Assembly (NCBI RefSeq): GCF_003334305.1
Contig: NZ_QOWS01000066.1
DNA: 891 nt
Source: Escherichia coli
GTDB lineage: Bacteria > Pseudomonadota > Gammaproteobacteria > Enterobacterales > Enterobacteriaceae
Strand: one strand, 5' to 3'
The translations under genes were made by a program, and so were the position numbers. How positions within the stretch are numbered: position 1 is the first letter of the stretch; each line of letters opens with the position of its first letter. This document shows positions 1-58 of the stretch, one piece after another. The notes under the pieces are model-generated. The model was given only the letters and a program-made list of their open reading frames with translations, ran no database searches and was not told the origin of the DNA.

Positions 1-4
1 CTTG

Positions 5-10
5 TATTAT
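5..10 (+). promoter_or_regulatory. Sigma70 -10-like hexamer TATTAT at the extreme left end; the matching -35 would lie upstream of position 1, in flanking DNA or in the right end of a circular junction
   Basis: TATTAT at 5-10 is one base off the TATAAT consensus and sits about 6-7 nt upstream of the proposed RNA 5' end at 17. IS110-family elements are known to assemble a promoter across the joined ends of the excised circle. No -35 can be seen because the window starts at the element boundary. Confidence 0.45.
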
Positions 11-58
11 CCCTCCAGTGCAGAGAAAATCGGCCAGTTTTCTCTGCCTGCAGTCCGC

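Follow-up and report, generated by a model that had tools for sequence, protein, structure and literature searches.

A promoter split between the two ends of IS621 probably accounts for the first bases of its left end in Escherichia coli

What is the role of a promoter-like hexamer that lies at the very edge of a mobile element? The window analysed here, i.e. the whole stretch of 891 bp of Escherichia coli DNA, opens with CT and TGTAT and carries the hexamer TATTAT at positions 5–10. The initial annotation had read this hexamer as a -10 element without a -35 element inside the insertion sequence. The assignment is borne out, as TATTAT matches the consensus TATAAT in 5 of 6 positions, and since just four bases of the element lie upstream of it, no internal -35 is possible. 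We conclude, with a probability of about 0.93, that a split junction promoter across the ends of IS621 explains how the window starts.

Compared with chromosomal copies of IS621, the window is 100% identical over 891 bp, from its first base. Matches are present in 2,244 of 5,426 complete E. coli genomes, at a median of 5 places per genome and roughly 13,000 places in all, and the matching chromosomal copies are annotated as ‘IS110-like element IS621 family transposase’. The published sequences of the full IS621 element, the left end (LE) and the bridge RNA are identical to the window (Supplementary Table 1 of Durrant et al. 2024, PMC11208160), and the entry ‘Full Element (including cores)’ in that table opens with CTTGTATTATCCCTCCAGTG... 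The window represents the left end of IS621, a bridge-RNA element of the IS110 family (IS110 group), and opens at the base conventionally counted as the first. Its features, all on the + strand, are the following.

1–2, + strand: CT core dinucleotide, the crossover site common to donor and target, with one copy per end of the integrated element
3–7, + strand: TGTAT, the right donor half (RD), read by the right donor guide in the bridge RNA
5–10, + strand: TATTAT, the proposed -10 hexamer of the junction promoter (Pjunc); 5–7 overlap RD, and 8–10 form the TAT arm in a sub-terminal inverted repeat of 3 bp
3–193, + strand: left end (LE), 191 bp, non-coding, given as the LE sequence in Supplementary Table 1 (PMC11208160)
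17–193, + strand: bridge RNA, 177 nt, identical to the published sequence; it begins 7 nt downstream of the -10 hexamer
194–891, + strand: 5' part of the IS621 recombinase gene, comprising the first 232 of 326 codons; the open reading frame runs off the window

The reading frame starts at the ATG at position 194, and the 232 amino acids encoded in the window match NCBIfam NF033542 (IS110 family RNA-guided transposase) with 176.3 bits against a cut-off of 140. The full 326-aa recombinase matches PF01548 and PF02371 and has the composition of a DEDD (RuvC-like) plus Tnp-domain serine recombinase. The natural target of IS621 is ATCAGGCCTAC, and insertion was found at the REP target ATCAGGC-CT-AC, with CT at both ends of the element and no further target duplication.

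The ends of the element were defined from six integrated copies at four sites, namely rsmS/mscK, nlpE/yaeF, srmB/yfiE and yhaC/rnpB. The shared sequence begins at CT in these six copies and after some 18 different left flanks of E. coli. Upstream of window position 1, the six copies have REP DNA ending in ...GCTTATCAGGC, and their right end reads ...CTTGCAGGCCATAACAGTAT, followed by CT and by AC... of the REP. From CT to ACAGTAT, IS621 measures 1279 bp; its right end (RE) accounts for 105 bp and its LE (window 3–193) for 191 bp. The element was reportedly described originally, by Choi et al. in 2003, as 1,279 bp long, which agrees with the length obtained from the genomic copies. The RE and LE sizes from these copies sum to the published 298-bp RE-LE (PMC11208160). 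The window had been taken to start exactly at the boundary of the insertion sequence; this holds in that the common sequence of the copies starts at CT, but CT is shared with the target, and the exact first base is therefore a convention.

The donor site rebuilt from the genomic copies, ACAGTAT-CT-TGTAT, agrees with Supplementary Table 1 (PMC11208160), where the specificity of the donor-binding loop is given as ACAGTATCTTGTAT. The earlier assignment of CT (1–2) as core and of TGTAT (3–7) as right donor half thus matches both the published donor and the reconstruction. All left flanks stop just before CT, and all right ends read ACAGTAT-CT-AC. According to passages of the structural study (PMC11208158), the right donor guide (RDG) binds donor positions 10–14, and cryo-EM places the top-strand cut directly 3' of CT, between window positions 2 and 3, and the bottom-strand cut four bases to the left. 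In an IS621 copy inside bcsG (locus L007), the reading frame of the gene is restored only by removing exactly 1279 bp, which leaves one CT, while taking out 1281 or 1277 bp breaks the frame. Because the bcsG frame requires that one CT be left, CT is the core common to element and target, and its assignment to the element is conventional.

Two insertions deserve a description in their own right. The copy in bcsG (L007:1282–2560, E. coli 2016C-3878) disrupts a coding gene for cellulose synthesis at a non-REP site, GTATCTGGC-CT-ACGTG, with one mismatch to the natural left target half. In the E. coli O26:H11 lineage (L001:1488–1500, rsmS/mscK; also H47–H55), the left flank reads ...GCTTAACAGTAT-CT instead of ...GCTTATCAGGC-CT. 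Here, 8–9 bases identical to the RE tip (TAACAGTAT, the left donor half) stand in for the left target half, and ACAGTAT-CT-TGTAT, a full donor site, is thereby present at the left junction of this copy. A 4-nt staggered exchange cannot account for this replacement of the left flank.

When the RE is joined to the window, the junction reads ...AAACTTGCAG-GCCATAACAGTATCTTG-TATTAT-CCCTCC-A(17)... It contains a -35 hexamer, TTGCAG (3/6), a 17-bp spacer (GCCATAACAGTATCTTG) and the -10 hexamer TATTAT (5/6), i.e. 8 of 12 consensus positions overall. This -35 is located near the opposite terminus of IS621, 19 to 14 bp ahead of the final base. A TTGACA-like hexamer 16–18 bp upstream of positions 5–10 had been predicted for the joined ends, and TTGCAG was found there at 17 bp. 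The transcription start predicted from the two hexamers is window position 17; the start had been expected near 17, and it coincides with the base at which the published 177-nt bridge RNA (window 17–193) begins.

The split promoter of IS621 is already known from Durrant et al. 2024 (PMC11208160) and Hiraizumi et al. 2024 (PMC11208158), parts of which state that RE holds the -35 box and LE the -10 box. Later work on ISPpu9/ISPpu10 and on ISPpu10 takes up this promoter as well. In small RNA-seq data described in sections of PMC11208160, coverage extends over about 177 nt from a predicted endogenous sigma70-like promoter onwards. The published RNA 5' end reflects this coverage of a plasmid-borne RE-LE and not primary-transcript mapping in the native circle. 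According to the same sections of PMC11208160, an RE-LE cut down to the 22-bp donor loses the -35 box, and recombination is abolished unless a synthetic promoter supplies the bridge RNA; with the synthetic promoter J23119, the signal was almost double that of the native RE-LE promoter. Sequence identity, ends, junction geometry, conservation and flank control were derived in the present analysis, while junction transcription and RNA ends are taken from the literature. A strong promoter that exists only in the joined circle had been proposed. The division into a -35 and a -10 at opposite ends is supported, but ‘strong’ goes further than the data on IS621, with a -35 of 3/6 and about twofold higher signal from J23119.

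A standard promoter and terminator scan of the window called none. Such a scan, which requires at least 4/6 per hexamer, also misses the circle promoter because its -35 matches in only 3/6 positions. An extended -10 was considered and rejected, as the TG at window 3–4 abuts the hexamer directly and is not one base away from it.

On the preferred reading, CT (1–2) serves as the crossover core, TGTAT (3–7) as the right donor half read by the bridge RNA and TAT (8–10) as one arm of the 3-bp sub-terminal inverted repeat, with TATTAT (5–10) acting as a sigma70-type -10. Excision as a circle would abut the two ends and generate the complete promoter TTGCAG-17 bp-TATTAT. Transcription from it would start at window position 17 and yield the 177-nt bridge RNA and then, downstream, the recombinase mRNA. 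Most integrated copies have a REP flank without a -35 at the right position, and integration would thus take the promoter apart. We infer that the recombinase is co-transcribed with the bridge RNA and that integrated copies are largely silent.

Circular intermediates are reported for the IS110 family in the literature, in parts of PMC11208160 among other sources. None of the 5,426 complete E. coli genomes contains RE and LE joined contiguously, which is what one expects of a transient circle. Two sets of candidates for such a junction were discarded: H43–H46, which seemed to run from RE across the core into LE, are chance extensions of ordinary right junctions, and 12 hits with full coverage proved to be neighbouring copies or mini-elements with internal deletions.

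How far can the hexamer itself be trusted? A match of at least 5/6 to TATAAT occurs in 3.8% of random 16-mers of the same composition, and as a bare motif TATTAT is weak evidence. Two unrelated promoter-like hexamer pairs scoring 8/12 lie inside LE. The only other 5/6 match to TATAAT in the window is TATCAT at 143–148, inside the donor-binding loop (GGACAGTATCATGG); because this loop copies the left donor half ACAGTAT, TATCAT is guide sequence and not a promoter element. TATTAT is raised above chance by its -35 partner at 17 bp, by conservation in orthologues with a flank control and by the published RNA 5' end.

Since the hexamer alone is no better than chance, conservation was tested independently. 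A recombinase scan of 100,044 species genomes yielded 78 loci with 84% to 33% identity. In Enterobacter, Phytobacter, Dokdonella, Methylomonas and Undibacterium, the ends of the orthologues were placed at the points at which copies within one genome cease to be identical. All five genera with such copy-defined ends have TTGnnn-17 bp-TATnnT across the joined ends. A larger set of 35 non-redundant junctions, whose recombinases are about 45–84% identical to that of IS621, was anchored on the donor motif alone; as these junctions were chosen on exact donor motifs, positions -6 to 7 are uninformative by construction.

Outside these positions, TTG at -18 to -16 is kept in 35, 34 and 35 of the 35 junctions, position -15 is A or C, and the spacing is always 17 bp, while the columns around the -35 carry little information. 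T8 is present in 34 and T10 in all 35 junctions, and conservation collapses from position 11. The commonest -35 hexamers among the orthologues are TTGACT and TTGACG, in a spectrum made up mostly of TTGAC(n), so that TTGCAG of IS621 is a weaker version of the family consensus. As a control, real chromosomal left flanks were compared with circle junctions. TTG stands at the -35 position in 39 of 40 circle junctions versus 1 of 42 flanks, and the mean match to TTGACA is 4.47 versus 1.57. Only 2 of the 42 orthologue left flanks reach 4/6 at any of three spacings, which is about chance level.

The alternative that survives best concerns the integrated copies. It holds that these are not silent, that chromosomal expression, either from a -35 in the REP flank or by read-through from the upstream gene, matters, and that the circle promoter is only a booster. 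Whether a flank can supply the missing hexamer depends on the REP. In the short REP class (...GATGCGCTACGCTTATCAGGC), which makes up 7 of 18 distinct E. coli flanks, the -35 position is occupied by TGCGCT (2/6), and a standard promoter scan at the short-REP copy L004 (srmB site) called none. Long-class REPs (...GCGACGCTnnnCGCGTCTTATCAGGC) place one of four hexamers exactly 17 bp upstream of TATTAT, as listed here.

L008:1263–1291: TTGACG, in the dtpD/phrB REP of E. coli NRZ96606; 10/12 together with TATTAT, and flagged by the standard promoter scan
L090:326–354: TTGCCG, at the ubiG site, 17 bp upstream of TATTAT
L088:325–353 (also L089): CTGACG, at the prpE site in IAI1, in SE11 and in numerous further strains, again 17 bp upstream of TATTAT
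L093: CTGCCG, in a long-class REP flank, 17 bp upstream of TATTAT

These hexamers match the consensus as well as or better than TTGCAG of the circle. A fortuitous -35 in the flanking target, on which expression of a chromosomal copy had been suggested to depend, therefore does occur as a sequence configuration, but only a minority of the integrated copies have it. As some integrated copies have a flank -35, the promoter is not ‘circle-only’ in an absolute sense. Further points speak for chromosomal expression: excision needs recombinase before any circle exists, and the origin of this recombinase is stated as unclear in a passage of PMC11208158, while the work on ISPpu9 and ISPpu10 proposes weak native promoters for this role. 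The element is also co-directional with the upstream gene at every site examined, which makes read-through geometrically possible.

Several observations weigh against this alternative, which we consider somewhat unlikely. Most flanks have no usable -35; besides TGCGCT in 7 of 18, the match is 3/6 or less in 15 of the 18 distinct E. coli left flanks. The orthologue flanks are not enriched for -35-like hexamers (2/42 at 4/6), and the flank -35 is for this reason regarded as accidental. Insertions between convergent genes are necessarily co-directional with the upstream gene, and the location of REPs between such genes explains the co-orientation. At loci L001–L009 and L088–L100, the element is co-directional with the upstream gene wherever this gene is annotated or called, and the downstream gene is usually convergent.

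Read-through could also be hindered by the stable REP hairpin followed by the U-rich start of the element, as proposed for ISPpu10. In the three loci folded (L004:1476–1510, L008:1249–1291 and L088:312–353), the U-rich element start CUUGUAUUAU directly follows a REP hairpin (-13.7 to -23 kcal/mol, z -3.4 to -5), an arrangement that resembles a terminator; the circle junction is without it (-5.8 kcal/mol, z +1.3). A terminator scan of REP hairpin plus element start did not call a terminator at L004 or L008. One can speculate, by analogy, that the REP hairpin and window positions 1–10 might together act as a terminator.

A related proposal is that a minority of copies, next to long-class REPs, would have a complete sigma70 promoter, built from a -35 of the REP (TTGACG, TTGCCG or CTGACG) and the -10 of IS621 with the 17-bp spacing of the circle, and would express bridge RNA and recombinase constitutively, so that they could be ‘starter’ copies for excision, with short-REP copies being silent behind the REP hairpin and the U-rich tract. 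We regard this as unlikely. If true, starter copies would supply the first recombinase and answer how the first circle arises.

The second alternative turns on the overlap of the -10 with recombination signals. It states that positions 5–10 are conserved for the needs of recombination only, i.e. RD pairing and the sub-terminal inverted repeat (STIR), that the likeness to a -10 is incidental and that the bridge RNA is transcribed from elsewhere, e.g. by read-through. Bases 5–7 indeed belong to RD (TGTAT) and bases 8–10 are the TAT arm of the 3-bp STIR, ATA...TAT, described in parts of Durrant et al. (PMC11208160). The STIR pairs -7/8 and -9/10 are complementary in 34 and 32 of the 35 junctions, and the chance level of 3.8% for a 5/6 match in any 16-mer fits an incidental likeness. 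As all six -10 bases overlap RD or STIR, their conservation by itself is no proof of promoter function. The TTG of the -35, which lies outside all known recombination signals, is cleaner promoter evidence than the -10.

We consider this alternative highly improbable, because TTG at -18 to -16 is near-invariant at a fixed 17 bp although it lies outside LD (-6 to 0) and STIR (-9 to -7), the columns beside it are variable and real flanks do not have it (1/42), the published RNA begins 7 nt after the hexamer, and, according to passages of PMC11208160, loss of the RE part with the -35 abolishes the function of cis-expressed bridge RNA while a synthetic promoter restores it. Moreover, position 9 is A or G without compensation at -8, with eight junctions pairing T with G; as this position varies uncompensated, the inverted repeat alone does not explain the pattern. 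In the RE, ATA at -9 to -7 is kept in 32, 34 and 35 of the 35 junctions and is as conserved as TAT at window 8–10.

The transcript expected from the split junction promoter is well defined as an RNA. The bridge RNA folds with a minimum free energy of -64.5 kcal/mol (z = -3.6) and has a stem-loop at its very 5' end, and its donor-binding loop carries GGACAGTAT at window 139–147, matching the element's own ends. A search of Rfam release 15 with the window gave no family match even at E <= 10 with permissive filters, which leaves the 177-nt bridge RNA unmatched in this database.

Derivatives of IS621 were also encountered. E. coli NWU_1 has an internally deleted mini-IS621 of about 150 bp in a REP of the mtr/yaaA intergenic region (L009:1801–1953). 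About the first 78 nt of LE are fused here to about the last 74 nt of RE, with both ends and both CT cores intact; the recombinase gene is missing and the bridge RNA is truncated, so that the derivative is MITE-like. A similar two-piece match is present in eleven other genomes (H32–H42). In E. coli 700481 (L090:345–391 and L101, ubiG/yfaL), the first 47 nt of LE are tandemly duplicated upstream of a complete copy, and the duplication junction reads TCTCTGC-CT-TGTAT. This is consistent with self-insertion of a circle at an internal CT (window 48–49), followed by homologous collapse of the two copies.

The element described in PMC11208160 and PMC11208158 is the same as the one studied here, with the CT core, the donor, the 191-bp LE, the 105-bp RE, the 177-nt bridge RNA, a -35 in RE and a -10 in LE. 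The hexamers TTGCAG and TATTAT with their 17-bp spacer are assigned here and are not spelled out in the portions of the text of these two papers considered. Circle-forming insertion sequences have long been known to have junction promoters. In the IS3, IS21 and IS30 families and in IS492, ISEc11 and ISPpu10 (IS110/IS1111), too, one end provides the -35 and the other the -10, and the promoters of these elements come together only in the circle. Such promoters drive transposase expression, and in IS110 elements also expression of the guide RNA. IS621 differs from the other systems in that its -10 is made entirely of donor-site and sub-terminal-repeat bases and in that the first product of the transcript is a guide RNA and not just the transposase mRNA. 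ISPpu9 is a family member without a junction promoter.

The closest parallel is ISPpu10 (bioRxiv 10.64898/2026.03.19.712850). Like IS621, it belongs to the IS110 family, has a CT core, inserts into REPs and has a Pjunc that is rebuilt on circularisation. When integrated, it has a target-derived hairpin beside RD, comparable to the REP hairpin next to IS621. The hairpin of ISPpu10 was shown to act as a terminator (bioRxiv 10.64898/2026.03.19.712850), whereas for IS621 the REP hairpin and the U-rich tract were seen and the terminator scan was negative.

A split promoter ties the expression of guide RNA and recombinase to the excised state and thereby limits damage to the host, and it is part of the reason why bridge recombinases work as a compact two-component system. 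As the split promoter was established in 2024, its confirmation here adds little. What is new, on a small scale, is that target DNA in the chromosome may in some cases restore the promoter, which bears on how excision starts from an integrated copy.
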